Below are positions 5,428 through 21,224 of a DNA stretch of 33,696 nucleotides, one piece after another (within the stretch, counting starts at the first letter, position 1; each line of letters begins with the position of its first letter). The stretch spans positions 1 through 33,696 of IMG/VR virus record IMGVR_UViG_3300043432_000128; one strand, given 5' to 3'. This DNA comes from a virus. Lineage: Duplodnaviria; Caudoviricetes. A program made the translations under genes and the position numbers. A model generated the notes under the pieces. It ran no database searches, was not told the origin of the DNA, and worked only from the letters and a program-made list of their open reading frames with translations.

Positions 5428-5432
5428 ATCGG

Positions 5433-6301: not shown

Positions 6302-6350
6302 CGCATCGTATCACACCGGCGGCGCGTAGCGTTGCCCTGCTTGTGGACAA
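6302..6350 (-). promoter_or_regulatory. Putative promoter: TTGTCCACAA box, shared GC box, extended -10 TGaTACGAT
   Basis: Same architecture and 30-nt spacing as the element at 10104-10152. Lies upstream of the HTH/initiator genes. Confidence 0.6.
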
Positions 6351-6387
6351 ATGCGAAAGCCGCCCGGTGATCGGGCGGCTGTCGTCG

Positions 6388-6618
6388 TCACTTCGTCGTG
6401 GCCCACAGGGCGAGAAGGCACAGCGCGGTGCCGATCTCGATCGTGGCGGCGACGGCCGTCCCGATCGTGCGCGCGGCGTTCGCAACGCCCGGCGGCGCGG
6501 TGTCGAGCTGGCGTTCCACGTCCTCGCGCTGCTGGCGCTGTTCGCCCGGCTTCGCGGTGATCGTGACGATCGCGCCGATCGTGTGGATCAGCGCGAGGGT
6601 GAAAGCGATCCATGCCAT
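6388..6618 (-). CDS. Small membrane protein (two hydrophobic segments)
   Basis: MAWIAFTLALIHTIGAIVTI and IGTALCLLALW. Confidence 0.6.
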   Translation of the reverse strand: MAWIAFTLALIHTIGAIVTITAKPGEQRQQREDVERQLDTAPPGVANAARTIGTAVAATIEIGTALCLLALWATTK

Positions 6619-6630
6619 ACGGTGTCGATG

Positions 6631-6936
6631 TTATTCCCGGCCGGCGTGCCACGGGACGGTTCCGGCCGGCGGCGTAGTCGCCGGCGTCGGCCTCGGTTTG
6701 TCGATCGCCTTCATCGCCGCGGCGACCTCGCGCACGCTGGGCATGGCGATCATCTCGGCCGCGCTCCCCGTGATGCGGTCGGTGCCGTCGCCGGCGGCGG
6801 TGAAGACGCGGTCCTGGTAGAACGTCCACCACACCTGGACGGCGACGGCTCGCGGATCCGCGGCGAACTCCGGCGCCATCCGCTCGCGGACGTGGCGCAC
6901 CTTGCCGGCGAGCGTTCGGGTTTCGATCCTGGTCAT
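6631..6936 (-). CDS. Hypothetical protein
   Basis: 101 aa, ATGA overlap with the upstream gene. Confidence 0.65.
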   Translation of the reverse strand: MTRIETRTLAGKVRHVRERMAPEFAADPRAVAVQVWWTFYQDRVFTAAGDGTDRITGSAAEMIAMPSVREVAAAMKAIDKPRPTPATTPPAGTVPWHAGRE

Positions 6937-7139
6937 GCGGCGAGAAGGTCAAAGCCCGGACGCACCGCGATGCGTCGGCCGTTTTTCAGGTGGATGACGA
7001 GCGTGCAGCTCTCGGCGCCGAGCTGGTCCTGGATCTTCAGCAGCTCGGCCTTGATCCGTTCGCCGCGGAACTCGCACGCGGCGCACCAGCGCTGGCCGGC
7101 GCGCGTCGCGCCGACCGGCTGGCCGCAATGGCACGTCAT
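6933..7139 (-). CDS. Small Cys-rich hypothetical protein
   Basis: Start re-called at 7139 (MTCHCGQP..WCAAC). ATGA overlaps at both ends. Confidence 0.65.
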   Translation of the reverse strand: MTCHCGQPVGATRAGQRWCAACEFRGERIKAELLKIQDQLGAESCTLVIHLKNGRRIAVRPGFDLLAA

Positions 7140-7375
7140 ACGAAGCCGCGGATCTCCTTCGCCGCCTCCAGCTCGGCGCGGTACCGCTCGATCTCGGAAA
7201 GGCGGATCGCGTAGCGCTTCGCCTTGCCGGTGGTGCACACGTTGACCGCGGCGATCGTGCCGACGCTGATCAGCCGGCGGAGGGTCTTCGTCCCGAGGGG
7301 AAGGTGCCCGTCCGGCTTCACGCGCGCGATCGGGATCAACGGGTCGGTGCTCTTGGGTGGGATCTCTTGGGTCAT
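7136..7375 (-). CDS. Small HTH/excisionase-like DNA-binding protein
   Basis: Start re-called at 7375 (MTQEIPPK). GTKTLRRLISVGTIAA...YAIRLSEIERY. Confidence 0.65.
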   Translation of the reverse strand: MTQEIPPKSTDPLIPIARVKPDGHLPLGTKTLRRLISVGTIAAVNVCTTGKAKRYAIRLSEIERYRAELEAAKEIRGFV

Positions 7376-8130
7376 ACGGATTTTCCGATGCGCTGCTGGT
7401 AATGGTGCAGCCAATGGTCGACGGTGTGGCGGACGTCCTCGTCGGTGTCCTGCTTCTGAAGCCAGAACAGATAGCTGAGGTCGTCGCGCGCGACGTCGGC
7501 CCACGTCTTGCCCTTGTGCTTCCCGAACGCGACGACGTGGAGCAGCGACGGCTCGCGGCTGATCTTCTGCATCCACTCGTCGATCGCCTGGTCGTCGCGC
7601 TCGAGCTGCTCCCCCGTCGGATCCGGCGCGAGGCCGAGGTGCAGCCGGGCCTCGGCCGTCAACACGCCGAACACCTGCTCGAGCACCAGGACGTCGGCGC
7701 GCGCGTCGTGCGCGTTGCCGGCGTCGATCTCGATCCCCATCGCGTAGCGGAGGTACTGGAGCGTGTGCTGCGCGAACTCCGGCCGCAGCCGGCGCGCGAT
7801 CTTCAGCGTGTCGATCCACCGCGGGACCTCCACGCCCTCGCGCTTCAGCACCGCGATGTCGAACGGCGCGTTGTGCGCGACCGCGATGACGTCCGGGTGC
7901 AGAAACTGCTCGGCCACGCGCTCGCGGAACGTCCCCTCGAACGGCGGCCGGCCGGCGACGGCCTTCTCGGTGATGTGGTGGATCGCCATCGCCTCGAACG
8001 TGATCGGCACGGGCGGCTTGAACGTGTCGACCAGGAACTCGTCCGGCTCCGGCCCCTTCAGCGCGATCTGCACCAGGCGGCCGTCGACCGCGGCCGTGGT
8101 CTCGGTGTCGAAGAAGACGAAGCGGTTCAT
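7372..8130 (-). CDS. DEDDh 3'-5' exonuclease (ExoX/DnaQ-like) with C-terminal FGKHKG domain
   Basis: Start re-called at 8130. Motifs FDTETT, AHNAPFD, WIDTL and HDARAD. C-terminal FGKHKGKTWADV...SYLFWL. Confidence 0.9.
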   Translation of the reverse strand: MNRFVFFDTETTAAVDGRLVQIALKGPEPDEFLVDTFKPPVPITFEAMAIHHITEKAVAGRPPFEGTFRERVAEQFLHPDVIAVAHNAPFDIAVLKREGVEVPRWIDTLKIARRLRPEFAQHTLQYLRYAMGIEIDAGNAHDARADVLVLEQVFGVLTAEARLHLGLAPDPTGEQLERDDQAIDEWMQKISREPSLLHVVAFGKHKGKTWADVARDDLSYLFWLQKQDTDEDVRHTVDHWLHHYQQRIGKSV

Positions 8131-9437
8131 ACGCTGATGCCGGCGCCGATGCAGCTCAGGCAAACCCCGCACTTGCCGTCGGCGCACGCGTCGCCCTCCT
8201 TCGGCGCCGGTGCCGCGGCGATCGCGGCCTTGCGGTCCTTCGCCAGCCCGGCGATCGCGCCGGTCAGCATCTGCGATCCGAACACGTCCCTGTCGAGCGT
8301 GTTCGCCTGGGTGAGGATGTCGTCCACCTCGGCGTCGGTCTTCGCCGCGGCGAACTTCGCCTGGTAGTCGTTCAGCACTTGCATCTTCGCCTTGCCGGTC
8401 TCGACCTCGGCCGCCGGCGCGGGTGCCGGTGCGGCCGGCGCCGCGAACTGCGCGGCGACGTCGTTCTCGGGCGGTGGCGGGGCCTGTTCTGAACCCGTCC
8501 CATTGCCCCCCGCCGATGCTCCCCCTTCCGGCGGCGGCAGATCATCGAGGTCGGCCGACGCGAGCTTCGCGGCGATCGCGGCCAGGTTCTCGTCCTTCCA
8601 CTCCATGCCGGTGATCGCGCGGACGCGGTCCTTGAAGTCCGGCATCGTCTTCGGGTTGATCTTCAGCCGGTTCAGCTCGGTGGCGATCCGCTGCTTGGCG
8701 ACGGTGTAGTCCGGCGCCGGCTCCTTGCCGAGCTTGTTCCACTCGATCAGCTCCTTGCCGGTCTCGACGCTGATCACGAACTCCGGGCGATCCATGAACA
8801 GGCCGGTGCGGTCCTTCGACGCCTTGGCGAGGTGCTTGTCGTTCGTGAGGTTGAAGTTGAGCGTCAGCTCGTACTCCGTGCCCTCGCGCTGCACCTCCTT
8901 CATGCCGAGCTTGGTCACCTTGGTCTTCTTGCCGTCGGTCTCGACCGCGTAGTCCTGCTTCGTCCGCATGGTGACGATGAAATGGCACGGCGTGTGCAGG
9001 ATCGTGTCGATGAAGCGCCGGTGCCGCGGGGTCACCTTCGCCCAATCCTGATACTTGCCGCCCAAGCTGTCGACGATCTCGAGGCAGCCGCCCTTGCCGT
9101 CCCATTCGTGCGTCGCGCTGTCGACGATGATCACCTCGTACTTGCCGGTCGCCTCGAGCGCGGCGATCGCGGAAACGTACCGCTCCGGGGTGAACGGCGC
9201 CTCCAGCTCGATCGTGTCGAACTCCGGGATCTTCACGCCGCCGATCGTGCTCCCCGCGTACAGCGCCGCGCTGCCGTTCTCGGTGTCGATCACCGCGATC
9301 TTGTCCCAATCCCCGGTCATGCCGTATGCCAGCAGCAGCGCGCTGCCGGTCTTGCCGTATCCGCTCGGGCCGCTCATGCCGATCTTCAGCGGCACCCGCG
9401 CGCGCGATGCGCGCTTGATCTGAATGACTTCGCTCAT
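8127..9437 (-). CDS. AAA-family ATPase (AAA_24/Sak4-like recombination protein)
   Basis: Walker A GPSGYGKT, IDTE, Walker B VIIVDS, KDRTG. Adjacent to the exonuclease. Pro/Ala-rich linker and C-terminal Cys cluster. Confidence 0.85.
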   Translation of the reverse strand: MSEVIQIKRASRARVPLKIGMSGPSGYGKTGSALLLAYGMTGDWDKIAVIDTENGSAALYAGSTIGGVKIPEFDTIELEAPFTPERYVSAIAALEATGKYEVIIVDSATHEWDGKGGCLEIVDSLGGKYQDWAKVTPRHRRFIDTILHTPCHFIVTMRTKQDYAVETDGKKTKVTKLGMKEVQREGTEYELTLNFNLTNDKHLAKASKDRTGLFMDRPEFVISVETGKELIEWNKLGKEPAPDYTVAKQRIATELNRLKINPKTMPDFKDRVRAITGMEWKDENLAAIAAKLASADLDDLPPPEGGASAGGNGTGSEQAPPPPENDVAAQFAAPAAPAPAPAAEVETGKAKMQVLNDYQAKFAAAKTDAEVDDILTQANTLDRDVFGSQMLTGAIAGLAKDRKAAIAAAPAPKEGDACADGKCGVCLSCIGAGISV

Positions 9438-9459
9438 GGTCGTGCGTTGTTACCCGCGC

Positions 9460-10065
9460 TCACTCGAGCACGGTGACGAATAAGGTCTGCCGGCCGAACG
9501 TCCGGGCGCGCTCGATGTCGCTCCCCATGAAGACGTCGACCGCGTAGTGGTACCGCCGGTTCATCCGATCGGCGACGATGCAGCGGATCTCGCGCTGGTA
9601 CTTCGGCCGCGACTGGATCCGCAGCCAGGTGCCGAGCGGGACGAAGTTGGCGGCGCAGATCGTTTCCCCGGCCGCGTGCCGGGCGCAAATGTCCGATCCG
9701 TCGGCCGCGATGCAGGGGGTGTCGTCGGTCTGCTCCGGGACGCTGTTGTATGCGCTCACCTCCCGGGCCACGGCGGCCGCCGGGATCCACCCGATCGTGG
9801 GGTCCTGGGGGGTCTCCCAGGCCGCGATCGCGTTTAGGCCGAAACTGGACCCCTCCCCCGACCGTTTGCCGGGGTCCTCGGCTGGCGTGGCGGGGTCTGG
9901 CTGCGACGCGACCCCCTCCGTGGCTACCTCTCCCCCTTGGTTTTCATCCTGGGGCCGTATAGCGCCCCGGGCGATGATCGCGGCGGCCAATAAAAAGGCC
10001 ACGAGGGCGGCCGCCGCGAACGCTCGCGTGATCCTCGCGGCCTGGGCATCGATGTCGTGCTGCAT
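9460..10065 (-). CDS. Membrane-anchored 3D-domain (MltA-like) protein
   Basis: N-terminal TM FAAAALVAFLLAAAIIA. C-terminal SAYNS..EQTDDTPCIAA..AANFVPLGT..VADRMN.RY...VDVFM. Start at 10065 (CACGACCATG context); 10080 is an alternative. Confidence 0.8.
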   Translation of the reverse strand: MQHDIDAQAARITRAFAAAALVAFLLAAAIIARGAIRPQDENQGGEVATEGVASQPDPATPAEDPGKRSGEGSSFGLNAIAAWETPQDPTIGWIPAAAVAREVSAYNSVPEQTDDTPCIAADGSDICARHAAGETICAANFVPLGTWLRIQSRPKYQREIRCIVADRMNRRYHYAVDVFMGSDIERARTFGRQTLFVTVLE

Positions 10066-10103
10066 GGTCGTGTCGGTCATGGGCGGATATTTCCGTCCTT
10101 GTC

Positions 10104-10152
10104 CGCATTTTGCCACGCTTTGGCGCGTTGCGCTACGTCGGGTTGTGGACAA
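10104..10152 (-). promoter_or_regulatory. Putative promoter: TTGTCCACAA box, shared GC box, extended -10 TGgCAAAAT
   Basis: Twin of 6302-6350. Sits just downstream of a terminator and upstream of the 3D/AAA/exonuclease genes. Confidence 0.55.
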
Positions 10153-10157
10153 CCCGG

Positions 10158-10195
10158 AAAAGCAAAAACCGCCCCTGGGTTTCAGGGCGCGGTTT
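10158..10195 (-). terminator. Rho-independent terminator ending the small early gene block
   Basis: Minus strand AAACCGCGCCCTG-AAAC-CCAGGGGCGGTTT followed by TTGCTTTT. Confidence 0.75.
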
Positions 10196-10652
10196 CCGGC
10201 CGGCGTCGGTACTTGGAAGATCGGCGCGCGATGCCGGGGGGCCTGATGAACTGGTACGTCGTCAGCCGGCGGCACGGCCGGCACCGGCTCGCGCGTCCGC
10301 ACCTCCCCCGCGGCTGCGGCGAAAAATGCGACAGCGGTTTCCAGGTCCAGCAATACGAGCAGCGCTTTGTGATCTCCCCGGATCCCGTTCGGCGCAGCGG
10401 CGGCTTCGCGCTCTTGCACGATCGGCACCGCGCCTGGCGTCCGCGGCGTCCCTTCGGATGCCGGGCGTATGCGTCGAGGGGTAGGTACTTCTCGCAGCCC
10501 AGGCATTGCTTCAGGATCCCGGCGGCCGTGATGCGGATCGGCCGGATGCGCCGGCACTCCTTGCAGATCCCGCGGACGCCGGTCTTGTTGTTCGTCGCCG
10601 GCGAGAATTCGGTCAGGGGCTTTTCGTGCCGGCACCTGATGCAGCGCTTCAT
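10182..10652 (-). CDS. Protein with three tandem C4 zinc-finger repeats
   Basis: Start re-called at 10652. K.CxxC..(K)PL..(F/Y)........G....CxxC occurs three times. Confidence 0.75.
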   Translation of the reverse strand: MKRCIRCRHEKPLTEFSPATNNKTGVRGICKECRRIRPIRITAAGILKQCLGCEKYLPLDAYARHPKGRRGRQARCRSCKSAKPPLRRTGSGEITKRCSYCWTWKPLSHFSPQPRGRCGRASRCRPCRRLTTYQFIRPPGIARRSSKYRRRPETAP

Positions 10653-10849
10653 GCGTCCGGCGGTAGCGATCCGTCGCCGGTCGCGTATGGGCACCCGATC
10701 TTGTGCCGCCAATACGCCCGGGATCCGCAGCAGTCGTGGCGCCACGCCTTGGCGTTCCACTTCGGATCCGATCGGTGCCCGAGCAGCCCCCGCTCCTTCA
10801 CCTTCTCGTATTCGCGCTGCATCCTGGTCTTGTCGACGATCATAGGCAT
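10649..10849 (-). CDS. Small hypothetical protein
   Basis: 66 aa, overlaps both neighbours. HDCCGS...RHKIGC. Confidence 0.55.
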   Translation of the reverse strand: MPMIVDKTRMQREYEKVKERGLLGHRSDPKWNAKAWRHDCCGSRAYWRHKIGCPYATGDGSLPPDA

Positions 10850-11526
10850 TGGATCCCGCGGCGCTCGAGGTGCGCCTTCAGCCGGGGGTTGATGACCGAC
10901 GCGAACACGAGCGGCTTCTCGAGGATCCGCGTCAGCGCGTCGATGAATTCGTCGAAGCGTCCGCTACCTGGTGCGATGCTCTCGATGTTCGGGCAGACCC
11001 ACTTGTCGCCCTCGTCGTAAAGGTCGGCGCTGAACCCCTTCCCTCGAGCGACGGTGAACGGGACGTCGGCGATGCCGTGCCGGCCGCGGATCCGCTGCAT
11101 CCGATCGCCGCGGTTGTACGCCTCGAGCGTCACGGCCTCGAGCTGCACGGCCGGGTGATGCTCCCCCGCGTCCTCGCGCTTCGTTTCCTCATGGATGTGC
11201 GCGTAGAACTTCTGCGTGGTCTGCGGCGCGTCCTGGAACGCGGCCATCATCTGATCCTTCCAGCGGTCGGTGTTGATCGCCTCGCGGAGCTGGTCGAACG
11301 CGTAGTACCACGCCATCGGGTTTCCCCAATTGAAGATCCCGTGCGTGCCCAGGAGCGTGCCGCGCTTGTCGAGCTGAAGGCCGCGGACGACGATCAAGAC
11401 GCCGCCCTCGCTCACGCAGTCCTCGAGCACCTCCCCGGTGATCGTGTTCGTGATCGTGACGCGGTGCGGCGTCGGTCCTTTGTGCGCGGTCACCTTGTTG
11501 TGCTTTTCGACGGTGTCTTGCGGCAT
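10840..11526 (-). CDS. Hypothetical protein, C-terminal region possibly GNAT-like
   Basis: Start re-called at 11526 (MPQDTVEK, preceded by TAACCCCCAAGACC). C-terminal IESIAPGSGRF...VINPRLKAHLERRG. Confidence 0.65.
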   Translation of the reverse strand: MPQDTVEKHNKVTAHKGPTPHRVTITNTITGEVLEDCVSEGGVLIVVRGLQLDKRGTLLGTHGIFNWGNPMAWYYAFDQLREAINTDRWKDQMMAAFQDAPQTTQKFYAHIHEETKREDAGEHHPAVQLEAVTLEAYNRGDRMQRIRGRHGIADVPFTVARGKGFSADLYDEGDKWVCPNIESIAPGSGRFDEFIDALTRILEKPLVFASVINPRLKAHLERRGIQCL

Positions 11527-11537
11527 GGTCTTGGGGG

Positions 11538-11843
11538 TTACGCCGTCTTGTACCCTTCGCCGTTCTCGTTCCTCTGCCACGCGTATGCCGGGCAGCCGCA
11601 CTCGCGGCAATGATGATCCGCGCCGCGCTGGTCGTTCTCGATGAACTCATGCATGGTCTTGACCATGCCGGCGCGCTCGGCCGAGCTGATGTAAAAAATG
11701 GCGCCCTTCCGATCGGTGCGTCCGTTGTCGGTCAGCAGCAGCGTGAAAAAGAAGCCGGTCCCCTCGAGGGCCTGGCCGATCTTCCCGCCGATCTCGTTCA
11801 GCTTCTCCTTCGCGGTCGCGTCCTCGACGTGGTACTTCTCCAT
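11538..11843 (-). CDS. Hypothetical protein
   Basis: Start re-called at 11843 (MEKYHVED). GFFFTLLL....IFYISSAER..M...M.EFI and C-terminal CRECGC. Confidence 0.7.
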   Translation of the reverse strand: MEKYHVEDATAKEKLNEIGGKIGQALEGTGFFFTLLLTDNGRTDRKGAIFYISSAERAGMVKTMHEFIENDQRGADHHCRECGCPAYAWQRNENGEGYKTA

Positions 11844-11863
11844 AAAAAATGGGGTTAGGGTTT

Positions 11864-12106
11864 TTACTTGATGCGGATCTCTCCGGCGATGATCGCGCGG
11901 CGCAGCGCCCGGGCGGCCGTGGCGATCGTGCTCGCGGCGGCGTGCGGCTTCCGGCCGAGCGCCGCGGTGAGCTGGGCGTCGCCGATCTCCCCGGCGAGCC
12001 ACGCACGGGCGACGTCGCGCAGCTGCTGTTCGGGCAGGGCGGTGCGCTTGCCCTTGATGATCGCGCCGCCGGCGGCGTGCGCTTTGTCCAGGAGGGTTTT
12101 TCTCAT
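11864..12106 (-). CDS. Small hypothetical protein
   Basis: Start re-called at 12106 (MRKTLLDKA). Helical and Ala-rich. Confidence 0.65.
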   Translation of the reverse strand: MRKTLLDKAHAAGGAIIKGKRTALPEQQLRDVARAWLAGEIGDAQLTAALGRKPHAAASTIATAARALRRAIIAGEIRIK

Positions 12107-12120
12107 ATTGGCGCGTAACG

Positions 12121-12393
12121 TCAAGCGCGGCGCTTTAGGTGCGCCGCCGCTTCCTCGGCCATCTCCCTGAACGGGATCCTGCCGGCGACCGCCTTCGCGG
12201 TCTCCATGTCGAACTTCGGCGCCGCGATCGCGGTCGCCTTCACGCTCAAGCTGCGGAGGTGCGACTTGGCGTGCGGCTTTGCCAGCCGGGCGCCCTTCGC
12301 CACGGCCGCCTCGATCGTGGACGCCTGGACGATCGGGTTCGGGATCACGACGGTCCCCCGATCGGTGAACGCGTCGATGCGCCAGGTCCTCAT
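12121..12393 (-). CDS. Small hypothetical protein
   Basis: 90 aa, ATGA overlap. Confidence 0.65.
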   Translation of the reverse strand: MRTWRIDAFTDRGTVVIPNPIVQASTIEAAVAKGARLAKPHAKSHLRSLSVKATAIAAPKFDMETAKAVAGRIPFREMAEEAAAHLKRRA

Positions 12394-12644
12394 ACGCCCT
12401 GGCGGTCAAGGGCGGCCGGCACCGGCTCGGCGACGTCGGCGCGTTCGAACGCGTCGAGGTTCGCCGCGTCGGCGCTGTCGATGCCGCCGATGATCGTGCG
12501 GACCTTGCCGGCGATCGCTCCGAAGTTGTCGGCGATGTTCTCCAGCTGCTCGGTCAGGATCTCCGCTTGGCCGTGGTCAATGCGGACGCTGGTCCGCGTC
12601 TTGCCGTTGGCCGACTCGATCGTGATCGTAATGCGGTCTTGCAT
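12390..12644 (-). CDS. Small hypothetical protein
   Basis: 84 aa, start context CACGACACCACCATG. Confidence 0.65.
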   Translation of the reverse strand: MQDRITITIESANGKTRTSVRIDHGQAEILTEQLENIADNFGAIAGKVRTIIGGIDSADAANLDAFERADVAEPVPAALDRQGV

Positions 12645-12665
12645 GGTGGTGTCGTGTTCGGTGGA

Positions 12666-12869
12666 TTAGGAAAGCTTGCGGCCGACCTCGCGCCAAATGT
12701 CGGTGCCGAGCATCGTATGATCGGCGCCGGCGTCCTTCGCGGCGCGGTTCGCCTGGCGGCGTGCCGCGGCGGCGATGATCTCGGCCTGGTGGTCGATGAA
12801 CTCGGCGCGCTCGTCGGCGCTCTGATCGTCGAAATGGATCCGGCACGTCTTGCAGTTTTTGTCGTGCAT
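12666..12869 (-). CDS. Small hypothetical protein
   Basis: Start re-called at 12869 (MHDKNCKTC), context TAACCCCGACCACCATG. Confidence 0.6.
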   Translation of the reverse strand: MHDKNCKTCRIHFDDQSADERAEFIDHQAEIIAAAARRQANRAAKDAGADHTMLGTDIWREVGRKLS

Positions 12870-12880
12870 GGTGGTCGGGG

Positions 12881-13150
12881 TTAGGCGCTGGCGGCGATGC
12901 CGTCGGCGCACGTTTCACAGCTCGCGTTGCCGTGGATGTCGCGCGTGGTCGCGCGCTCCCCGCAGCCGCACTTCGGGGCGAGCGGGTTCTCCTTGCTGAT
13001 GCCGGCGGCGAACTTCAGGATCTCCGCGGCGCGTTCGAACGCGCGCGCCTTGGCGAGCCACTCGCCGGCGATCGCGCGATCCTTCTCGACCTTGGCGCCG
13101 GCGCGGATGCGCTGGGCCTCGGCCTGGACGTGCTCGATGACGTTCTGCAT
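12881..13150 (-). CDS. First gene of the early operon; small protein with C-terminal Zn ribbon
   Basis: 89 aa, KCGCG...CETC, CACGACCATG start. Confidence 0.7.
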   Translation of the reverse strand: MQNVIEHVQAEAQRIRAGAKVEKDRAIAGEWLAKARAFERAAEILKFAAGISKENPLAPKCGCGERATTRDIHGNASCETCADGIAASA

Positions 13151-13371
13151 GGTCGTGCTGGTTATGGATCAAAGGGTAGGGGATCCAACCCGGCCGGATC
13201 CTGCCGGTGCCGGGGTTACCCCCGGCGTTTCGTTCCCCTCCCCTTTGATCCCCAGGCCGCCGCCGATCTTCCTCGGTGCCCTGCGGCTGTTGTTTGGCAG
13301 CGCTTTCCGCTGCGCCCTGCCTGGGCTTGTCTGCCTTATTCTCCTGTAAGGTGCTCCCCTTCCCTTCCTTA
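13151..13371 (-). ncRNA. Structured ~220-nt 5' leader of the early operon
   Basis: Nested stems: 13166-13183 with 13234-13251 (18 bp, one mismatch), CCCAGGC/GCCTGGG, GCCGGGG-GTAA-CCCCGGC, GCAGCG-GAAAG-CGCTGC and GTAAGG/CCTTAC. Confidence 0.55.
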
Positions 13372-13376
13372 CTTAT

Positions 13377-13405
13377 ACAGTACCATATAATCGGTCTTTT
13401 GTCAA
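13377..13405 (-). promoter_or_regulatory. Sigma70-type early promoter
   Basis: TTGACA (13405-13400), 17 nt, TGg-TACTGT (13382-13377), in a locally AT-rich patch. Confidence 0.8.
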
Positions 13406-13452
13406 GGGTGCCGTCCGGCCCCTCCCCTGCCTGGACGCGCCTTGCGCCGACG

Positions 13453-13461
13453 TGGTATCCT
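13453..13461 (+). promoter_or_regulatory. Putative divergent extended -10 promoter (TGgTATCCT)
   Basis: Back-to-back with the early promoter. Predicted +1 near A13468, pointing to the bidirectional terminator at 13575-13607. Confidence 0.4.
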
Positions 13462-13574
13462 GCGGCGATGCGGGACGACAGCGCCTCCGGGCGTGCGGAT
13501 CCGGCCGATGAACCACGGCGTCAACGCTCCGGCGCGGACGTTGGTGATCCCGGCGATCGGTCCGCCACCGCGAC

Positions 13575-13607
13575 AAAAAACCGGCTCCCCTTTCGGGGGC
13601 CGGTTTT
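13575..13607. terminator. Bidirectional Rho-independent terminator
   Basis: AAAAAA-CCGGCTCCCC-TTTC-GGGGGCCGG-TTTT. Confidence 0.8.
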
Positions 13608-13668
13608 GATATACGATCGGCCGATCTCGAGCGTCGTCCGATCTCCCCCGTATTGTTCCACGGGGAAC

Positions 13669-13707
13669 AAAAAAAGACCACCCGGATCCTTTCGGACCCG
13701 GGGGTCT
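13669..13707 (-). terminator. Rho-independent terminator (end of late operon and of the sRNA)
   Basis: Minus strand AGACCCCCGGGTCC-GAAA-GGATCCGGGTGGTCT-TTTTTT. Confidence 0.85.
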
Positions 13708-13753
13708 CCCCGCCACGCACGACCATGCCGGGCGGTGGAAATGAACCCACCGC
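13669..13753 (-). ncRNA. Predicted ~85-nt antisense small RNA complementary to the CACGACCAUG start motif
   Basis: Extended -10 TGaTACGAT (13768-13760). 5' hairpin GCGGTGG/CCACCGC starts at the predicted +1. Unpaired CCGGCAUGGUCGUGCGUGG, then a terminator stem and U7. Confidence 0.65.
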
Positions 13754-13765
13754 GCTCCGATCGTA

Positions 13766-14014
13766 TCACCTCCGGCCGGCGTTGGACAGGATGTCTTGGA
13801 TCTTCACCTGCGTGCGGCTGCGGATGTAGTAGGCGACCGGGGCCAGCGTGGTGATCCCGAGGATGATCTCACGGACGCCGGCGACGATGTGGTTCCCACC
13901 TTCCACGACGGCGGCCTGTTGGTCCGGCCCGATGACGCCCAGGAGACCGGCGAGGGATGCCGCCGTTGCGATCGTGGCGATCCAGAACTCCGACGTCTTG
14001 ATGCCTGGTTTCAT
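13766..14014 (-). CDS. Holin-like membrane protein
   Basis: MKPGIKTSEFW start, two hydrophobic segments, AYYIRSR tail. Last gene of the late operon. Confidence 0.7.
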   Translation of the reverse strand: MKPGIKTSEFWIATIATAASLAGLLGVIGPDQQAAVVEGGNHIVAGVREIILGITTLAPVAYYIRSRTQVKIQDILSNAGRR

Positions 14015-14128
14015 ATTTCCATTGGATCAGCGCGGCGACCGGGAGCGCTCCGGCGGTTCCGGCGGCGACGGTCGACGCGAGAATTATTTTTGCGACCGCT
14101 CGGGCGATCGCCCGGGCGACGCGGCCGG

Positions 14129-15247
14129 TCATAGCGGCCGCTGCGGCAGCTTCGCCCAGGTGTCCTTGTCGACGTTGATCGTGCGCGCGGTGGTGATCCC
14201 CCGCATGATGCACGTCAGCGACGCCTGGCCGGCGCGGTCGGCCGCGATCGTCCGCAGCTCCCCGCCGGCGATGATGCCGAAGGATCCGTCGCCCGGGTTT
14301 TGGAACGCGAGCTTGTTGTCGTGCTGCTTGCAGAAGTCCTTCCCGAACTGGTCCGGCGGCACGATCGCGCTCGGGATGATCGTCCAGCCGTTGAACACGT
14401 AGATCCCCTTCACGAACCCGACGGCGGTCTGCTCGCCGGCTTCGAAGTAGGCCGCGGTGATCGCGCTGTATCCCTTCCAGCGTCCGCTGGTGAACGTGTA
14501 GCGGCCGCCCCAGGATCCCGGGATGAAGATCGCCTTCGTGCCGATCGGGATCCCGCACTCGGCGACGTCGGTCTTGCCGAACGCGTCGCCGTAGACCGCG
14601 TGCCCCCACTTCGGTTCGCCGGCGGCCGGGTGGCGGATGACCGGGCAGCTGCACCAGCCGTTGTTGGTCCCGGTGAACCCGAGGATCGCGCCGAGGCCGT
14701 ACTTGATCGCGGCGGCGAAGATCTCGATGTCGTCGGTGCCGCCCTCGGCCATGCGGTAGTTGTCGAAGACGTCGAGCTTCGTTCCCTCGGCCGCGATCGC
14801 GGCGGTGACGCGGCTCTTGTCGCCGACGACGCTCTCCGGGAGCGGGTTCCCGTTCGCGTCTTCGTCCGGGAGGATCTTCTTCGGCACCAGGCGGCCGGCG
14901 ACGGTCTCCTTCACGCCGTCGCGGAGCGATGCTCCCCCGCCGGGCTGGCGGATGAACGGGTACAGCGACGATGCGCTGAACGTGACGTCGTCGCCCTTGG
15001 TCTTCTTGCGGATGACGCGGCCGTATGCCGCGCACGCCTCGGCGACGCAGCTGCTGCGGCCGCCCTGGTCGCGGACCTCGACCTCGAGGCCGACGGACCT
15101 GGTGGCGCTGAAGCCGGCATCCCATTCCGCCTCGGTCACGGGCGCGACGGCGCCGGCGGCGATCAGGTCGCGGACGCGGTGATCGCGCTCGTCCTTCTCG
15201 TCCCGGATCGCGCCGGTCCCTTCCTGGATCTCTTTTTCTTCGGGCAT
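14129..15247 (-). CDS. Papain-like (C1) cysteine peptidase in the endolysin position
   Basis: Start re-called at 15247. VRDQGGRSSCVA (Gln/Cys), GHAV (His) and IPGSWG (NSWG equivalent). Confidence 0.8.
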   Translation of the reverse strand: MPEEKEIQEGTGAIRDEKDERDHRVRDLIAAGAVAPVTEAEWDAGFSATRSVGLEVEVRDQGGRSSCVAEACAAYGRVIRKKTKGDDVTFSASSLYPFIRQPGGGASLRDGVKETVAGRLVPKKILPDEDANGNPLPESVVGDKSRVTAAIAAEGTKLDVFDNYRMAEGGTDDIEIFAAAIKYGLGAILGFTGTNNGWCSCPVIRHPAAGEPKWGHAVYGDAFGKTDVAECGIPIGTKAIFIPGSWGGRYTFTSGRWKGYSAITAAYFEAGEQTAVGFVKGIYVFNGWTIIPSAIVPPDQFGKDFCKQHDNKLAFQNPGDGSFGIIAGGELRTIAADRAGQASLTCIMRGITTARTINVDKDTWAKLPQRPL

Positions 15248-15258
15248 GGTCGTGGGGG

Positions 15259-15570
15259 TTACTTGCTGAAGCGACAAACGTGCGGGAGCGACGCGCTAAG
15301 CGCCGCCGTCGCCTCCGCGCTCTTTGTCATGGCCGCGGTGTTGCGGTCGATCGTTTCGCCCATCGCCGCGGTGTGCACCTGCATCGCCTCGGCGTGGTCG
15401 GCCGCCATCGCGCGCATCGCCTCGGCCGCCTCCTTCGCCTGGGCGCGCATATCCTGGCTGTGCCGCCACGCGATCACGACCAGGACGACGAGCGCGGCGA
15501 TCGCCACGCCGGTCCCGCCGTATTGGGCGAGGGGCGTCAGCGCGGATGATGCTTGCGTGATCGGTTCCAT
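15259..15570 (-). CDS. Single-TM coiled-coil protein (holin-like)
   Basis: Start re-called at 15570. QYGGTGVAIAALVVLVVIAW then an Ala-rich coil. Lies between the tail fibre and the peptidase. Confidence 0.6.
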   Translation of the reverse strand: MEPITQASSALTPLAQYGGTGVAIAALVVLVVIAWRHSQDMRAQAKEAAEAMRAMAADHAEAMQVHTAAMGETIDRNTAAMTKSAEATAALSASLPHVCRFSK

Positions 15571-15581
15571 ACGTCGTTTTT

Positions 15582-17093
15582 TTAGATCGTCGGAAGGATC
15601 AGAAGGCGCGTCGTCGTGATCGCAATGCCGACCTTTTTGCTGTTCGATCCGGCCGACGTGCCGATGCTGCCGGGCGTGGCGTTGACGTAATACGTCGATC
15701 CGATCGTCAGCCCGCTGAAACCGTCGAGGACGCTGCCGAATTGTACGATGACGTCGGCGCCGCCGGCGGCCGATGCGACGGCGAAGCCGCAGAAGTTGTT
15801 CGTGAGGTTCGCTACGTCGCTGTCGGCCTTGTACGCCTTGCCGGCCACGGTGACGAGCTGCACCAGCATTCTGATGTCGGTGCCGGCGTTCTCCGCCCAG
15901 GTGCCGGTCGACTGGGTGCGGGTCCACATATTCCCGCTCGCGTACGGGTTCGTGCTGGTCGCGTTGATGTCGACGTAATGGCTGGTACTCAGCGCGCCGG
16001 CGCGTTCGATGACGAACCAGTAGGTCGTGCCGTTCGCCAGGTTGATCGCCTGGTTTAGGATCAGCGTGTTGTCGCCGTTCACAAACGACGTGCCCGGCTG
16101 GGTGAAGGACGCGAGGAACGTCCCGCTCGGCGCGCCGGCGCTGTCGGCCTGGATCCCGACGGTGTAGTTATCGCTCGGCGAGCCGGCGTTGTTCGAGCAG
16201 TTGAGGACGATCCGATCGTAATCGTTCCCATCGCCCACGATCTTCTGCGCGCGCTTCTCTTGCGAGTCGGAACGACCGACCGGCGCGTTCGTGTTCGACG
16301 TGGTGGCGATCGTGATCGTGTTGAGCGTCGTTCCGGCGATACCGACCGCCACCGCGTTGTTGGCGGTGATCGACTGTCCGGCCGAAAGCGGCATCCGCGC
16401 CGGCATGACGTTCGCCGGCAGGCTGGTCAGGTGGAAAACGCCGAGCGTCGCGTCGTAGATCATCTCGAGGATCTGTCCCGCGACGAAGTCGCCGTCGTCG
16501 AGGTCGACGGTGCCGCCGTGCTTCTTGATCGACTTCGCTCCCAGGCTGTTGACGTTGACCGATGCCGGCCCCGTGTTGCGCGCATCGGGCTTCACGCGCA
16601 GCGGCATCCCGGCGGTATATGCCGCGGGGACCGGGTCGAGCGTGACCACCAGCGTGTCGTTCCCCGTCACGCTCGCGGCGTAGCAGGGCGTCTGCTGCTG
16701 GACCGCCTTCGCGCTGTTATCAGAAAGACCGGCGATCACGATCCACGCGTCGGCGTCGGTGTCCCACGTGATTAGGTATTTCCGGCCGCTCAGGAAGTCG
16801 TTCGCTGCGAGCGCGACCAGCGCACCGCTCACCAGCTTCTTGATCGTCTTCGCTCCGTACGTCGTGCTGCCAAGGGTCAGGTTGAACGTCGAGGTGTCGG
16901 TGTTGGAAAAGTTGGCCTCGAGCAGCACGCACGTCCCGTCGACAAGCGCCGCGGGTTCGTCGCCATCGTTCCCGCCGAGGTCGAAGTCGCCGAGGTACGC
17001 GTTGGCGGACCCGGTACCGACGATCCGCATGATGCCGGATCCTGCCAGCTTTTTTGCGGACGCTTCTTCGCCTGTCTGCCAGGGGTATCCCAT
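15582..17093 (-). CDS. Tail fibre / receptor-binding protein
   Basis: 503 aa, Gly/Ser/Thr/Asn-rich. Fibre motif NTGPASVNVNSLGAKSIKK. Distal tail position. Confidence 0.8.
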   Translation of the reverse strand: MGYPWQTGEEASAKKLAGSGIMRIVGTGSANAYLGDFDLGGNDGDEPAALVDGTCVLLEANFSNTDTSTFNLTLGSTTYGAKTIKKLVSGALVALAANDFLSGRKYLITWDTDADAWIVIAGLSDNSAKAVQQQTPCYAASVTGNDTLVVTLDPVPAAYTAGMPLRVKPDARNTGPASVNVNSLGAKSIKKHGGTVDLDDGDFVAGQILEMIYDATLGVFHLTSLPANVMPARMPLSAGQSITANNAVAVGIAGTTLNTITIATTSNTNAPVGRSDSQEKRAQKIVGDGNDYDRIVLNCSNNAGSPSDNYTVGIQADSAGAPSGTFLASFTQPGTSFVNGDNTLILNQAINLANGTTYWFVIERAGALSTSHYVDINATSTNPYASGNMWTRTQSTGTWAENAGTDIRMLVQLVTVAGKAYKADSDVANLTNNFCGFAVASAAGGADVIVQFGSVLDGFSGLTIGSTYYVNATPGSIGTSAGSNSKKVGIAITTTRLLILPTI

Positions 17094-17094
17094 A

Positions 17095-17331
17095 TCAGGT
17101 GCGGGTTATTGTCACCGCGGTCTCCGCGGCGATGTGGTCGGAAAGGCGCGACGTCGCCGTCGCCAGCACCTCGGCCGTGCTGTCGGCCGCGATCTCCGTC
17201 CCCTCGCCCTCCCCCTCGAACACGACCTGGTCGACCTCGACCTGGCCGCGGACGTCGGCGTTCAGGAACGACAAAACGCGCAGCGCTGCGCGGAAGTCGT
17301 TCGGGGTGATCTTCAGGGTGATCCGCTTCAT
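17095..17331 (-). CDS. Small hypothetical tail-region protein
   Basis: 78 aa, tightly packed between tail genes. Confidence 0.6.
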   Translation of the reverse strand: MKRITLKITPNDFRAALRVLSFLNADVRGQVEVDQVVFEGEGEGTEIAADSTAEVLATATSRLSDHIAAETAVTITRT

Positions 17332-17927
17332 ACGTCGTTCGAGAATTCATCCTCGTAGTCGATCGTCAGCGACTGGATGCCGGTCTTCGTGATCGACGTC
17401 AGCGATCGGTCCCACAGCGTGCCGTCGTCCGGCGTGCCTTCGTCGGCGTCCATGAAAAGACCCATCTCGGTGTGCGTGCCGACCGCCTCGGCCAATCCGT
17501 AGAACGCGGTGTAGTACGCCTTGGCGCCGGAATAGCTGCGGCTCGCCAGCAGCACGCGCGCGACCTCCCCCTCGAGCGTGGTGTCGCTCGCGTCCGGCGG
17601 CGTGGATCCGTTGCCCAGCGCGTGGACGTTCACGCCGATCTCGTCGACGCTGCCGAGGTTGCCGCTCAGCGCTTTGGTCAGGACCGCGAAGCCGACGGTC
17701 GGCGTGATGTTCTCGAACACCTGGCGGCGCGACGGCGCGATGCCGTACTCGTCGAGCAGGATCCGGGCGCGGTCGGCGAAGCTGAAGCGGTTCGTGTCGA
17801 GCAGCTCGGGGCGGTTCTTGACCGCCACCTCGAGGCGGCGGCCGATCTCCCCGTCGAACCACGAAACGACGCCGATGCGCTTCACCGGCTTCTTCTCCTG
17901 GACGGTTTTTGCGTTGGGGTCCTGCAT
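17328..17927 (-). CDS. Baseplate / tail-fibre attachment protein
   Basis: ENITPTVG...ALGNGSTPPDASDTTLEGEVAR...EAVGTHTEMGLF...ITKT pattern of tail-collar/upper baseplate proteins. Confidence 0.7.
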   Translation of the reverse strand: MQDPNAKTVQEKKPVKRIGVVSWFDGEIGRRLEVAVKNRPELLDTNRFSFADRARILLDEYGIAPSRRQVFENITPTVGFAVLTKALSGNLGSVDEIGVNVHALGNGSTPPDASDTTLEGEVARVLLASRSYSGAKAYYTAFYGLAEAVGTHTEMGLFMDADEGTPDDGTLWDRSLTSITKTGIQSLTIDYEDEFSNDV

Positions 17928-17934
17928 ACTTTTT

Positions 17935-19437
17935 TTATGATACCAGACAGCCCCTGTCCGCGAACAGCACGCGCTTCCGATCGGCCAGGGATGACGGAAT
18001 ATAAGGCCCGGCGACCCATATCGGCGGATCGTCGATGTAGGTCAGGGTATCGCGTGCCACCAGGAGCGGCCGGCTCACGTCGACGGCCGTCCTGATGCTC
18101 GAGGTCCGGCTGACGAGGATCGCGCGGTTCACCCGTTCGGCCGTGGTGATGACCTGATCGCTCGGCGACTCGACGCGCCGGCCGCGGATGATCTCGGCCA
18201 GGAGGTCGATCAGCTCGTAGGTCTTCACGCTCACGACCTCGACGCGCCACTCCATCCGCTCCGGGCTGATCACCGTGCCGTTCATCCGCTGGATCACGAA
18301 GTCCGCGCTGAACGCGTCGACGTCGCTGCTGATCGTGATCTTTTGCCCGGGCGACAGGCCCTGCTCGTAGGTGGTGAAGGATCCCTCGCGCAGCCGCCGG
18401 GCGTACGCGCTGATCTCCGCGAGCGCGCGGTTGCCGGCGTCGGCCCGGCTCTTGATCGTCGGGTCCTGGATGAAATGCTGGCGCTCCCCGTATGCGCCGA
18501 GGGACGTCAGCTCGCGGTACCGCACCGCGATCGGGAAATAGTACGGCGCGGTGATCTCGATCTCGAGGCCGGCGCCGGGCGGGGACGCGGGATCGAAGTA
18601 CAGCGTGTGAAGGTTGAAATCGTACAGGCAATCGAAATCATCGAAGCTGTCGATGTTTTGGATCCCGACCGTCTGCCCCACCGCGTTCACCGTCACGGTG
18701 AGGTCGCTGTATTCGCGCGAAAGCGTGAACGTGTGCTGCACGCCGTCGCCCTCGAACGTGTCGGTTTCCTCGACGGTGCTCAGCTCCTTGCCGCCCTCGA
18801 CCAGGATGCTGTTCCTGATCTGCGAGAAGTCCTCCGCGATCACGAGCGACTCGAACACGTATTTTCCGCCGAGGTCGGTCAGGTTGAACGGCGCGGCCTC
18901 GGTCAGCTTGCTGAAGAAGTGGACGTCCTTGTCCTGGTCGATGAACCACTCGCACCCGAGGACGTCGGCCAGCTTTTGGATCGCCTCGCTCGGCGCGACG
19001 TTGTTGAAGCTGATCGAGGTGATCGCCAGCGCGGCGTCCGGGTCGACGGCCGTGGTGGTGATGCCGGCGCCGCCGTAGTTGGTCACGATGTCGTCGATGA
19101 TCTCGGCCGCGGTCTGCGCCTCGTACCCGACGTTCACGAGCTTGCGATCGAGAAGGTGGACGTAATTTTTCAGCTCGCACTGGTACGTCACGACGTGGCC
19201 CTGCTCCGTGCTGCGCGTCACGCGGGTCATGTACCCGCCGAAGATCTTCGTGTTGCCGGCGTCGGTGTCCCACCAGATCGCCACCTCCTGCTCGCCGGCC
19301 GGGGTGAACTTGGATCCGTAGCGGTCAATCGAAAGCCGGGCGGTGGTGGCCTCCTTGGTCGTCCCCAGCGTGATGTGGACGGACCCGGCCTTCACCGCCT
19401 CGGTTCGATCGACCCCGTCGATGACGACGCGCAGCAT
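17935..19437 (-). CDS. Tail tip / baseplate hub protein
   Basis: Directly follows the tape measure. AIQKLAD..G.EWFID.DKDVHFF, IRNSILVEG and GLSPGQKITI hub-like motifs. Confidence 0.75.
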   Translation of the reverse strand: MLRVVIDGVDRTEAVKAGSVHITLGTTKEATTARLSIDRYGSKFTPAGEQEVAIWWDTDAGNTKIFGGYMTRVTRSTEQGHVVTYQCELKNYVHLLDRKLVNVGYEAQTAAEIIDDIVTNYGGAGITTTAVDPDAALAITSISFNNVAPSEAIQKLADVLGCEWFIDQDKDVHFFSKLTEAAPFNLTDLGGKYVFESLVIAEDFSQIRNSILVEGGKELSTVEETDTFEGDGVQHTFTLSREYSDLTVTVNAVGQTVGIQNIDSFDDFDCLYDFNLHTLYFDPASPPGAGLEIEITAPYYFPIAVRYRELTSLGAYGERQHFIQDPTIKSRADAGNRALAEISAYARRLREGSFTTYEQGLSPGQKITISSDVDAFSADFVIQRMNGTVISPERMEWRVEVVSVKTYELIDLLAEIIRGRRVESPSDQVITTAERVNRAILVSRTSSIRTAVDVSRPLLVARDTLTYIDDPPIWVAGPYIPSSLADRKRVLFADRGCLVS

Positions 19438-19449
19438 ATTGGGTATCGG

Positions 19450-20994
19450 TTACAAGCGGATGTTGCGCTTCGCGTACTTCACGATCGCGTCGCCCAGCGC
19501 CTGGGCCGCCTGGTCGGCGTTGCCGAGGAAGCTGTTCCCGGTGATGTAGATCGTCATGCCGCCGGCGCCGGCCAGGCCGATGTTCGGCACGATCGAGCCG
19601 GATCCGCCCGGGACGAAAAGCTCCGGGCCGCGCTCGCCGACCAGGTACGCGGTGCCGCCGGTGACGGGTCCGCCGCCGGCGCGCGCGCCGCCGAAGCCGA
19701 GGTTCGCGCCGAGGTTTGCGAAGGACGTCGATACCGTGCTCGCCGCGCTCTTGATCTTCGACAGGAAGCTGTCGATGCGCTGCGTCACCGCGTCGATCGT
19801 CCCGACGATCGCGCTCTTGATGCCGTCCCACACCGCGACGGCCGTGGCCTTCGTTTCCTCCCAGATCTGTTTCAGGTTGTCCTTCGCGTTGACCCACGCG
19901 GTGATCGCCTTCCCGGTCCAGTCGATCCACACCGCGATCATCTTCACCAGGAGGTCGATCGCGCCGAGGACGGCGAGGATCGCAACGACGACGACGGCGC
20001 CGAGGAACTGCGCCATCGCCTCGAAGACCGGCTTGTTCTGCTGGACGATCGCCATCAAGTTGCGCCATGCCGGCACGAGCGTGCCCTGGATCGTCGCGTT
20101 CAGCTGCTCGAGGGCCGCGCGGATCAGGGCGACGGCGCCGACGTCCTCGAGCACGCGCCATGCCGCGGTCGCGGTGTCGATCAACCAGCGGATCGAAGCG
20201 ACCAGGATGTCGAGCACCTGGGGAAGCGTTTCGCCAAGCCATGCCGCGAAGACCTGGAAGCGCGGGAGCGCGTCGTCGACCAGCTTCGTGATCGTCGGCG
20301 CGACGGCGCTGCCGACGGTCAGGGCGATGCCCTGGAACGCGGTCTTGAGGTACCCGAGCGCGTCGTTCAGCTGCGCGGCGCGGCCGGCGCTGAGGTCGTC
20401 GAAGCTGACGCCCAGCTCCTTCGCCTTCTTGCTCCATTCGGCCATCGAAAACTGCCCGCCCTCGAAAAGCGGGAGCAGGTCGGTGCCGGCCTTGCCGAAC
20501 GCGTCGAACGCTTTCTGCGCGCGCTGGGCCGGATCCTTCGTCGATGCGATCGCGTTCCCGAGCGCGGCGAACTGCTCGTCCGGCTTCATGGCCTGGAAGC
20601 GCTCGAGGGAAACGCCGATGTCCTTCGTGATCACCCGGCCGAGGCCGCTGCCTTCCTTGCTCGCGTCGGCCATCGTGATCTGCATCTTTTTGACGGCCGC
20701 CTCGACGGTCTCGATGCTGGTGCCGCTTGCGTCGGCCGCGACACGGAGGGCGCTCACGCTCTCGGCCGCGAGGCCGGTGCGCTTGCTCATCTTCTCCACG
20801 GCGTCGCCGACGTCCGCGAACTGCTTCGCGGCCGCCACCGCAAAGGTGCCGGCCGCGATCGCTGCGGCTCCGACGGCGACGGCCGCCGTCTTGGCCGCCT
20901 TCATAACGCCGTCGAGGTTGATGCCGATCTTTTGCAGCTCCTTGCTGACCTCGTCGCGGAGGTCAATGATCGTTTCGAGGCGTGCGGTTGCCAT
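19450..20994 (-). CDS. Tape measure protein
   Basis: 514 aa, helical and Ala-rich with Trp-spaced repeats. C-terminal RAGGGPV..G..YLVGERGPELFVP motif. Confidence 0.9.
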   Translation of the reverse strand: MATARLETIIDLRDEVSKELQKIGINLDGVMKAAKTAAVAVGAAAIAAGTFAVAAAKQFADVGDAVEKMSKRTGLAAESVSALRVAADASGTSIETVEAAVKKMQITMADASKEGSGLGRVITKDIGVSLERFQAMKPDEQFAALGNAIASTKDPAQRAQKAFDAFGKAGTDLLPLFEGGQFSMAEWSKKAKELGVSFDDLSAGRAAQLNDALGYLKTAFQGIALTVGSAVAPTITKLVDDALPRFQVFAAWLGETLPQVLDILVASIRWLIDTATAAWRVLEDVGAVALIRAALEQLNATIQGTLVPAWRNLMAIVQQNKPVFEAMAQFLGAVVVVAILAVLGAIDLLVKMIAVWIDWTGKAITAWVNAKDNLKQIWEETKATAVAVWDGIKSAIVGTIDAVTQRIDSFLSKIKSAASTVSTSFANLGANLGFGGARAGGGPVTGGTAYLVGERGPELFVPGGSGSIVPNIGLAGAGGMTIYITGNSFLGNADQAAQALGDAIVKYAKRNIRL

Positions 20995-21005: not shown

Positions 21006-21224
21006 TTAGCGGCGCTGCTGGGCCTTGGCGGCCGCCTCGCGCTCGAGCGCGCGCCGGGTGGCGATGATCTCCAGGTACGCGTCGAGGTCGTGCGCGTCGA
21101 TCGCGCGCGCCTCGTCCGGCGTCCAGCCGTACTCGCGGCTAAGGGTCTCCAGGATCACCGCCTCCGACGGCTCGGCCGTCCCCGTCAGCTCGCGCCTCAG
21201 CTGGCCGGGGTCTCGGCTTTTGGG
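21006..21224 (-). CDS. Tail assembly chaperone GT extension (expressed by -1 frameshift)
   Basis: No start of its own. The -1 frame encodes LSREYGWTPDEARAID, a tail chaperone motif. Slippery C CCA AAA at 21224-21218. Confidence 0.75.
   Translation of the reverse strand, partial: PKSRDPGQLRRELTGTAEPSEAVILETLSREYGWTPDEARAIDAHDLDAYLEIIATRRALEREAAAKAQQRR

Follow-up and report, generated by a model that had tools for sequence, protein, structure and literature searches.

The late-operon end and the control region

The DNA analysed here, referred to as the window, comes from a freshwater phage; it covers an entire virus record (33,696 bases) and carries about 52 genes on its minus strand. Because of a 153-nt terminal repeat (positions 1-153 and 33544-33696, one mismatch), the record is probably a near-complete circular assembly; its CheckV completeness is 45%. 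The late genes follow the order terminase, portal, protease, capsid, tail tube, tape measure, hub, a C1-peptidase-like gene and an 82-aa gene, and a 600-nt intergenic control region lies between the last of these and an early region that encodes a Sak4-like ATPase, an exonuclease, HTH proteins, GroES and a methyltransferase. Many of the window proteins have no family in Pfam or PHROGs, and a Shine-Dalgarno-like word is present at one of 52 starts. The host may be a member of the Patescibacteria, a guess from two traits, the lack of Shine-Dalgarno sequences and extended -10 elements close to starts. Before the terminase stands a block of glycosyl/pyruvyl-transferase-like genes (91-804, 31856-32548 and 32891-33637) that is common to two relatives, G021 and G005; a 248-aa pyruvyl-transferase-like gene spans the terminal-repeat junction region. 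One DNA sequencing run, possibly the source of the window, reproduces 13041-16467 without difference.

The control region and the end of the late operon contain the following predicted features.

13377-13405, minus strand: early promoter-like element TTGACA-17-TACTGT, read from the sequence
13453-13608, plus strand: second promoter-terminator unit of about 140 nt, found by scan, with its promoter at 13453 and its terminator at 13577-13608
13760-13768, minus strand: extended -10 promoter-like element TGATACGAT, from the sequence and a promoter-plus-terminator scan
13668-13753, minus strand: predicted small RNA of about 85 nt with three hairpins (fold -54.9 kcal/mol, z -6.15)
13732-13753, minus strand: 5′ hairpin of 8 pairs with a 6-nt loop, from the fold
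13710-13731, minus strand: seed hairpin, from the fold, with loop GUCGUG (anti-CACGAC, 13723-13718) and a stem containing CAUG (anti-AUG)
13669-13709, minus strand: intrinsic terminator with U7 (13675-13669), from the fold

A simple scan of the window returned only two promoter-plus-terminator units. One is the RNA unit, which closes the late operon and shares its direction. The -10 element TGATACGAT of this unit overlaps the stop codon of the preceding 82-aa gene (13766-14014); a sigma-70 scan that required a -35 element found no promoter there. The terminator is probably shared with the late operon. The other, at 13453-13608, is the only such unit on the non-coding strand of the window, and no start-site targets were found for it; relatives G005 and G002 likewise carry a reverse-strand unit. 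Downstream of the early promoter, a highly structured 220-nt leader (13151-13372, minus strand), a possible attenuator, extends to the first tagged gene, and its last long hairpin ends just before the tag described below.

By its sequence, the unit is a predicted stand-alone RNA gene with its own promoter and intrinsic terminator, and with one seed for many mRNAs. The initial annotation had placed a -10 element at 13768-13760, a 7-bp hairpin beginning at 13753, an unpaired seed at about 13731-13713 and a strong terminator with U7. The -10 element and the terminator were borne out, and the 5′ hairpin is present with 8 pairs instead of 7. The seed, in contrast, is not a free strand: the fold shows three hairpins in series, with a hairpin at the seed position, and exposes only the 6-nt loop GUCGUG. 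The seed alone folds into a 7-pair hairpin of -11 kcal/mol, and the unpaired probability is 1.0 for the loop and 0.0 for CAUG. Loop-first geometry is common among antisense RNAs, and an open GUCGUG loop combined with a paired CAUG corresponds to that arrangement. Searches of Rfam gave no family for the predicted RNA; for the window at E up to 5 there was one unrelated weak match.

The start tag and its predicted targets

The promoter-hairpin-terminator unit at 13668-13768 (minus strand) holds, at 13718-13727 and away from annotated gene starts, the sole exact inverted copy of a 10-mer, CACGACCATG, that an exhaustive motif search of both strands found in eight coding-strand copies, each at an ATG opening an ORF (8/8). 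With up to one mismatch allowed, matches to the 10-mer numbered 16, against a mean of 2.70 in 100 shuffles, none of which reached 16. The shorter word CACGACC precedes eight of the 234 minus-strand ATGs, all eight of them ORF starts. The single antisense copy noted earlier holds for the exact 10-mer; three inverted copies with one mismatch (4292, 15475 and 25836) are all opposite coding sequence. By chance, 0.025 inverted copies of the 10-mer would be expected on the whole strand and 0.0016 in the 2209 non-coding bases. When binding was calculated net, with both structures paid for, values of -12 kcal/mol or lower were obtained for 12 of 52 starts and for 4 of 182 other ATGs (p 4e-6); the second and third early genes are among these starts, and so is the putative small terminase. 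The predicted targets are as follows.

5985-5997, minus strand: start tag of the HTH_36-like putative replication initiator gene (5433-5987), 14 pairs
21570-21583, minus strand: start tag of the tail assembly chaperone gene (21197-21574), 14 pairs
9435-9447, minus strand: start tag of the AAA_24 / Sak4-like ATPase gene (8127-9437), 13 pairs
24836-24848, minus strand: start tag of a 106-aa gene behind the major capsid gene, 13 pairs
13147-13158, minus strand: start tag of the first early gene (12881-13150), 12 pairs
15243-15254, minus strand: start tag of the C1-peptidase-like putative lysin gene (14129-15247), 12 pairs
2011-2022, minus strand: start tag of a 328-aa gene (1029-2015), 12 pairs
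10062-10072, minus strand: tag at ATG 10065 of the gene at 9460-10065, 11 pairs, alternative start at 10080
31594-31611, minus strand: imperfect target at the putative small terminase gene (31124-31600), 16/18 with one G-U
12642-12876, minus strand: weaker start tags of the second and third early genes (ATG 12869 and 12644), net binding -18.0 and -14.0 kcal/mol

On recounting, the contiguous pair counts given earlier (14, 14, 13, 13, 12, 12, 12 and 11) were all correct, and so was the 16/18 match at 31600, where one G-U and one mismatch over 18 nt were read from the sequence. The stretch 12642-12651 is a one-mismatch copy of the tag, and the first three early genes are all tagged. Several of the gene names are provisional. 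The small terminase was named solely by its place before the large terminase, and the tail chaperone by its position behind the tail tube gene and before an ORF with a PHROG tail-chaperone match; the product of 21197-21574 aligns with its positional orthologues in relatives. A short ORF after it (21006-21158) matches a tail assembly chaperone family, as expected of a frameshifted extension. For the initiator protein, Atlas gave matches to HTH_36 clusters at 0.96 and PHROGs a weak one (E 0.084), while the product of 14129-15247 had Atlas structure rows named Peptidase_C1 and no Pfam or PHROG match. Pfam gave no confirmation of the label "3D protein" originally attached to the gene at 9460-10065, in which another in-frame ATG lies five codons upstream of 10065.

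Predicted RNA units, seeds and tags in relatives

Relatives were gathered by tail-tube alignment, which yielded 74 viral and 45 metagenome loci, and 25 were analysed (19 records and 6 single loci). G-numbers denote the genomes of relatives, G000 is the window, and gene starts in relatives come from a custom caller. G001 was used without bases 40001-46802 and G010 without bases 1-20000; the far part of G001 resembles a second phage. No relative was returned when GTDB genomes were searched with the tail tube and the terminase, or GenBank phages with the tail tube.

Behind the last late gene, 11 relatives have a -10 hexamer, a short predicted RNA and a terminator, four further candidates were added later, and in 10 of the 25 relatives no RNA unit was found. 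Six relatives also have a TAnnnT hexamer in contact with their last stop codon. The units stand at the same place but have no sequence in common with the window RNA, and the relatives carry their own start tags, CCATGCAA, CTATGCAA and CATTGAGA, which are matched by their own seeds. CTATGCA opens an ORF at 7/7 of its sense copies in G006, where the loop reads UUGCAUAG / AUUGCAUAG; CCATGCAA does so at 5/5 in G001, where the RNA reads UUGCAUGG / UUUGCAUGG. Between these two phages the tags differ by C/T and the RNAs, correspondingly, by G/A, a compensatory change. The seeds of G009 and G004 are identical at 22 of 23 nt, with flanking hairpins that diverge on both sides, and their complement, CATTGAGA, is found 8-12 nt before the ATG, at 5 of 60 starts in G009 and at four starts in L263, the carrier of the G004 RNA. 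The signal is weaker in G007, where CAACACA occurs at 5 of 56 starts and the best 8-mer at 2 of 56 (shuffle p 0.065), and in the fragment G022. In the five relatives checked, the seeds are mostly unpaired. The search for co-variation thus revealed seeds and start tags changing together in four other lineages, which supports the earlier idea of one antisense RNA for many gene starts, except that in the window a hairpin loop takes the place of the free-strand seed.

Since pairing of the G009/G004 seed falls upstream of the AUG, which it does not cover, the RNA might be a guide or activator that brings ribosomes or a phage protein to tagged starts, an option already raised in the initial annotation and in keeping both with the lack of Shine-Dalgarno sequences at those starts and with the many window proteins that have no family. 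In the window, G001 and G006, however, the duplex covers the AUG; about 40 untagged genes, including those for capsid and tail tube, need no guide; and Cas, Argonaute and TnpB families were absent among 53 ORFs searched against Pfam and PHROGs, with no repeat array around the RNA unit. We regard a guide as the least probable of the explanations considered. An RNA-guided effector system (CRISPR, TnpB or Argonaute) is not supported, as no effector family or array was linked to the RNA in these searches, which left some proteins unnamed.

The predicted targets that recur across lineages are the tail chaperone, the replication initiator, the Sak4-like ATPase and the first early gene. G006 and L263 have a tagged initiator, L263 a tagged ATPase, G001 and G006 a tagged first early gene, and G001, G006, G007 and G022 a tagged 200-aa phrog_10477 gene. 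In 6 of 12 phages (G000, G001, G006, G009, G004 and G022) the tail-chaperone start is complementary to the phage's own RNA over 8-14 nt, and in the remaining six over 3-6 nt (permutation p 0.018 with G000 and G004 excluded); duplex energy calculated without regard to accessibility failed to tell own tail-chaperone starts from foreign ones. The lysin was rejected as a conserved target, the orthology between the window and G007 lysins being weak (E 0.007).

In a further comparison, the 8-mer with the most start-site targets was taken from each RNA and compared across 20 genomes. The own genome was strictly best for G001, G006, G007 and G009, that is, for 4 of 13 relatives (p ~0.003 at 1 in 20), and also for the window, and it was not preferred in 9 of 13 (G002, G008, G012, G013, G015, G021, G010, G026 and G005). 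The fragments G004 and G022, neither of which was best, are left out of this count, as is a unit of G008 (G008a) with short ORFs led by Shine-Dalgarno sequences, which matched all genomes alike. Shuffle p values were 0.008 for G001, 0.0045 for G006, 0.065 for G007, 0.0125 for G009 and 0.0235 for the window, with a range of 0.005-0.036 for the window alone. Because units were picked by eye after some complementarity had been noticed, neither the own-genome nor the seed/tag tests were blind. A scan proceeding from start-enriched 8-mers to their inverted copies lands on the RNA unit in G000, G001, G006 and G009; in AT-rich genomes it gave many uninformative matches.

The tag is absent from the three closest relatives by structural proteins (G018, G021 and G005; capsid 62-67% identical), so that the system is either patchy among relatives or its pairing too weak for the tests used. 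In viral contigs the seed 16-mer has 26 exact loci, and neither a tagged start nor the hairpin layout accompanies any of them; the seed plus a T-run gave 12 loci, with the sense tag in 0/12, and no close relative with the same seed was found. Relatives sought through the ATPase (21 loci) were all distant and nothing in them was usable.

Three other observations were made at these loci. Directly upstream of the RNA, a similar gene of 67-87 aa is present at L059:18748-18951, L058:13428-13646, L081:12702-12965 and L085:19684-19914, also in L066, L102 and L113, and not in the window; its product is a possible protein partner. Long hairpins with large U/G-rich loops lie behind the lysis genes at L079:19700-19770 and L100:18130-18195, and their complementarity to A-rich start leaders was not significant when tested. 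At L066:16400-16560 and L119:16780-16960, small transcription units contain very short ORFs preceded by a strong GAAAGGAGGTG Shine-Dalgarno, whereas the other genes of these phages have none.

The comparison also bears on two explanations that require no antisense RNA. In one, the unit is a mere terminator of the late operon, the tag a favoured start context, and the inverted copy a product of chance or the start of a 34-codon plus-strand ORF (ATG 13725). The tagged ATG does open a 34-aa ORF on that strand, a plus-strand promoter is present at 13453, and many relatives are without the signal. Against this stand the expectation of 0.0016 chance copies in non-coding DNA, the separate terminator of the plus-strand unit at 13577-13608, and the co-variation of seeds with tags in four other lineages; furthermore, the inverted copy in relatives opens 67, 6 or 81 codons or has no ATG, and the 34-codon ORF is not conserved. 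We consider this explanation highly improbable. In the other, to which we also give little chance if slightly more, the tag is bound by a protein, either as a DNA operator or as an mRNA site recognised by a translational repressor, with the inverted copy as an extra site or a remnant. The stoperators of cluster A mycobacteriophages are an example of such DNA operators. The tag motif is asymmetric and repeated at gene starts in one main orientation, as such a site could be, and three HTH-type proteins are encoded (6003-6263, 7136-7375 and 5433-5987). The register to the ATG, however, is fixed in 8/8 copies, the early promoter at 13377-13405 has no copy of the tag, and the sense motif, not its inverse, would be expected in a decoy for an mRNA-binding protein. 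Moreover, in five lineages that differ in their tags, the inverted copy is found within a promoter-terminator unit, in a loop or a free linker.

Proposed mechanism and relation to known systems

The feature itself is real, and the unit probably encodes a multi-target antisense RNA that is functional, with comparative support from four further lineages. The reading that we favour, with reasonable though far from full confidence, is that 13668-13753 encodes a trans-acting antisense RNA that represses translation initiation, likely with a quiescence threshold. To take its parts, functional pairing between RNA and tags appears quite probable from the sequence comparisons, and repression, if the two do pair, very probable. 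A role in quiescence or immunity, if there is repression, is only marginally favoured, and which state the RNA serves is the least certain step.

In the favoured mechanism the RNA would be transcribed from the extended -10 promoter of the unit, and the 3′ end of the late transcript might be a second source. The exposed loop GUCGUG would kiss CACGAC in a tag, the stem would unzip and CAUG would cover the AUG, giving 11-14 perfect pairs for which no chaperone would be needed; the anti-AUG bases lie in a stem costing 11 kcal/mol, which counts against this pairing model. Since the starts lack Shine-Dalgarno sequences (one of 52 has one), masking of the A/C-rich leader and the AUG is proposed to stop ribosome loading. 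One tagged gene per module would be affected, comprising the first early genes, the Sak4-like ATPase, the initiator, the small terminase, a head-region gene, the tail chaperone and the lysin. The RNA would be the equivalent of a repressor with operators, its targets being 8-12 of the phage's own mRNAs, and it would hold off the lytic programme until target mRNA exceeds RNA, a quiescence or carrier threshold. A constitutive sRNA that is consumed by its targets gives such a threshold, and the phage would therefore commit only under strong transcription. An incoming phage with the same tag would be silenced too, and we propose that tags differ between lineages because a resident RNA would silence newcomers that share its tag.

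The same pairing might instead provide a lytic timer or dosage control, with RNA that accumulates late as the late operon's 3′ end, shuts early genes and trims low-copy late proteins (small terminase, tail chaperone and lysin). This would suit the position of the RNA unit, which follows the last late gene in the same orientation and has its -10 on the final stop codon, as well as the tags on the first three early genes. It would also suit the absence of PF00589 (tyrosine integrase) and PF07508 (serine recombinase), which, like PF01381 (HTH_3), were not found in the window, G001, G006, G007 or G009 (5/5 RNA-bearing phages), in agreement with the earlier remark that a protein repressor is missing. 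The unit's own promoter, however, suggests expression independent of late transcription, and the tail chaperone, which is needed late, is the most conserved target. Since early and late genes alike are tagged, a lock on the whole programme fits better, and we consider a timer unlikely. The tagged late genes, a poor fit to a simple timer, are no proof of quiescence, and a dormant state without an integrase is unproven.

If the antisense reading is true, the RNA would form a genome-wide, RNA-only switch over replication, recombination, packaging, tail and lysis genes in phages without a detected integrase or classic repressor, and would suggest a compact, chaperone-free way of silencing many genes. 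The co-varying seeds provide comparative evidence beyond single-genome sightings. More tentatively, and with somewhat less than even confidence, we suggest that phages of hosts lacking Shine-Dalgarno sequences replaced a protein repressor and its operators with an RNA of 60-90 nt that locks one gene per lytic module, that seed and tags drift together to produce RNA-defined immunity groups, and that the start-associated sequences (SAS) of cluster K mycobacteriophages, discussed below, have the same explanation.

Phage antisense control of this kind appears to be new. Described phage antisense RNAs, as far as the sources available to us extend, act on one phage target or on host genes. In the accessible text of one such source, sar of P22, OOP and aQ of lambda and STnc6030 of BTP1 block translation of phage mRNAs or destabilise them, in lysis/lysogeny decisions or superinfection exclusion, and each has one target and no cross-module tag (PMC12197685), whereas the tag in the window extends across modules. 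A literature search, with most subscription papers outside its coverage, found no phage RNA antisense to a shared start tag.

The c4 antisense RNA of P1 and P7 acts beside a protein repressor. It is described, in the portion of the source available, as a three-stem RNase P product that acts on the immunity region through loops a′ and b′, and it resembles the window RNA, as proposed here, in being a trans-acting phage RNA that pairs through exposed loops near ribosome-binding sites, with a specificity set by a few variable bases and a role in immunity and lysogeny (PMC5320573). The window RNA, in contrast, has one seed, 8-12 dispersed targets and its own -10 element and terminator. Membership of the c4 family was rejected, as Rfam gave no match in the window and none at the gathering score in five relatives, and the predicted RNA has three serial hairpins with one seed loop instead of a two-loop, three-stem junction. 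GcvB is a host RNA whose pairing is imperfect and aided by Hfq. In enteric bacteria its single G/U-rich seed silences many mRNAs by masking an A/C-rich enhancing sequence, according to the accessible part of PMC3879156. The window RNA is alike in its single seed, its many predicted mRNA targets and the proposed masking of A/C-rich leaders; GcvB targets metabolic genes, whereas the window RNA would pair perfectly over 11-14 nt across the AUG of the phage's own tagged genes. By its predicted action the window RNA would work like c4 and GcvB, yet it belongs to neither family.

Among published layouts, that of the cluster K SAS comes closest. In the accessible text of PMC3203893, which also names the cluster A stoperators, these are an asymmetric motif present at many gene starts in 11-19 copies, with a single inverted site in four K1 phages, and the authors leave an RNA or a protein partner open; the available part of a 2024 paper still calls the role unknown (PMC11373665). 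The window tag shares with the SAS its presence at many starts and the one opposite-orientation copy away from any start. The two have no sequence relationship: the SAS, as far as the accessible text goes, is 13 nt long, has a Shine-Dalgarno core and stands 3-7 nt before the start of non-structural genes only, whereas the window tag abuts and includes the ATG, has no Shine-Dalgarno core and is also present on packaging, tail and lysis genes. No inverted SAS was found within 28000-61100 of Pixie. In Anaya (L259:31850-31905) and CrimD (L260:30815-30870) the inverted SAS makes up the 10-nt loop of a long hairpin, with a second hairpin upstream of it; the stems around the loop differ between the two phages, and the region is conserved in 150 phage records. 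An antisense RNA acting on shared start tags would offer a concrete answer, in culturable mycobacteriophages, to the role of the SAS, a published question since 2011.
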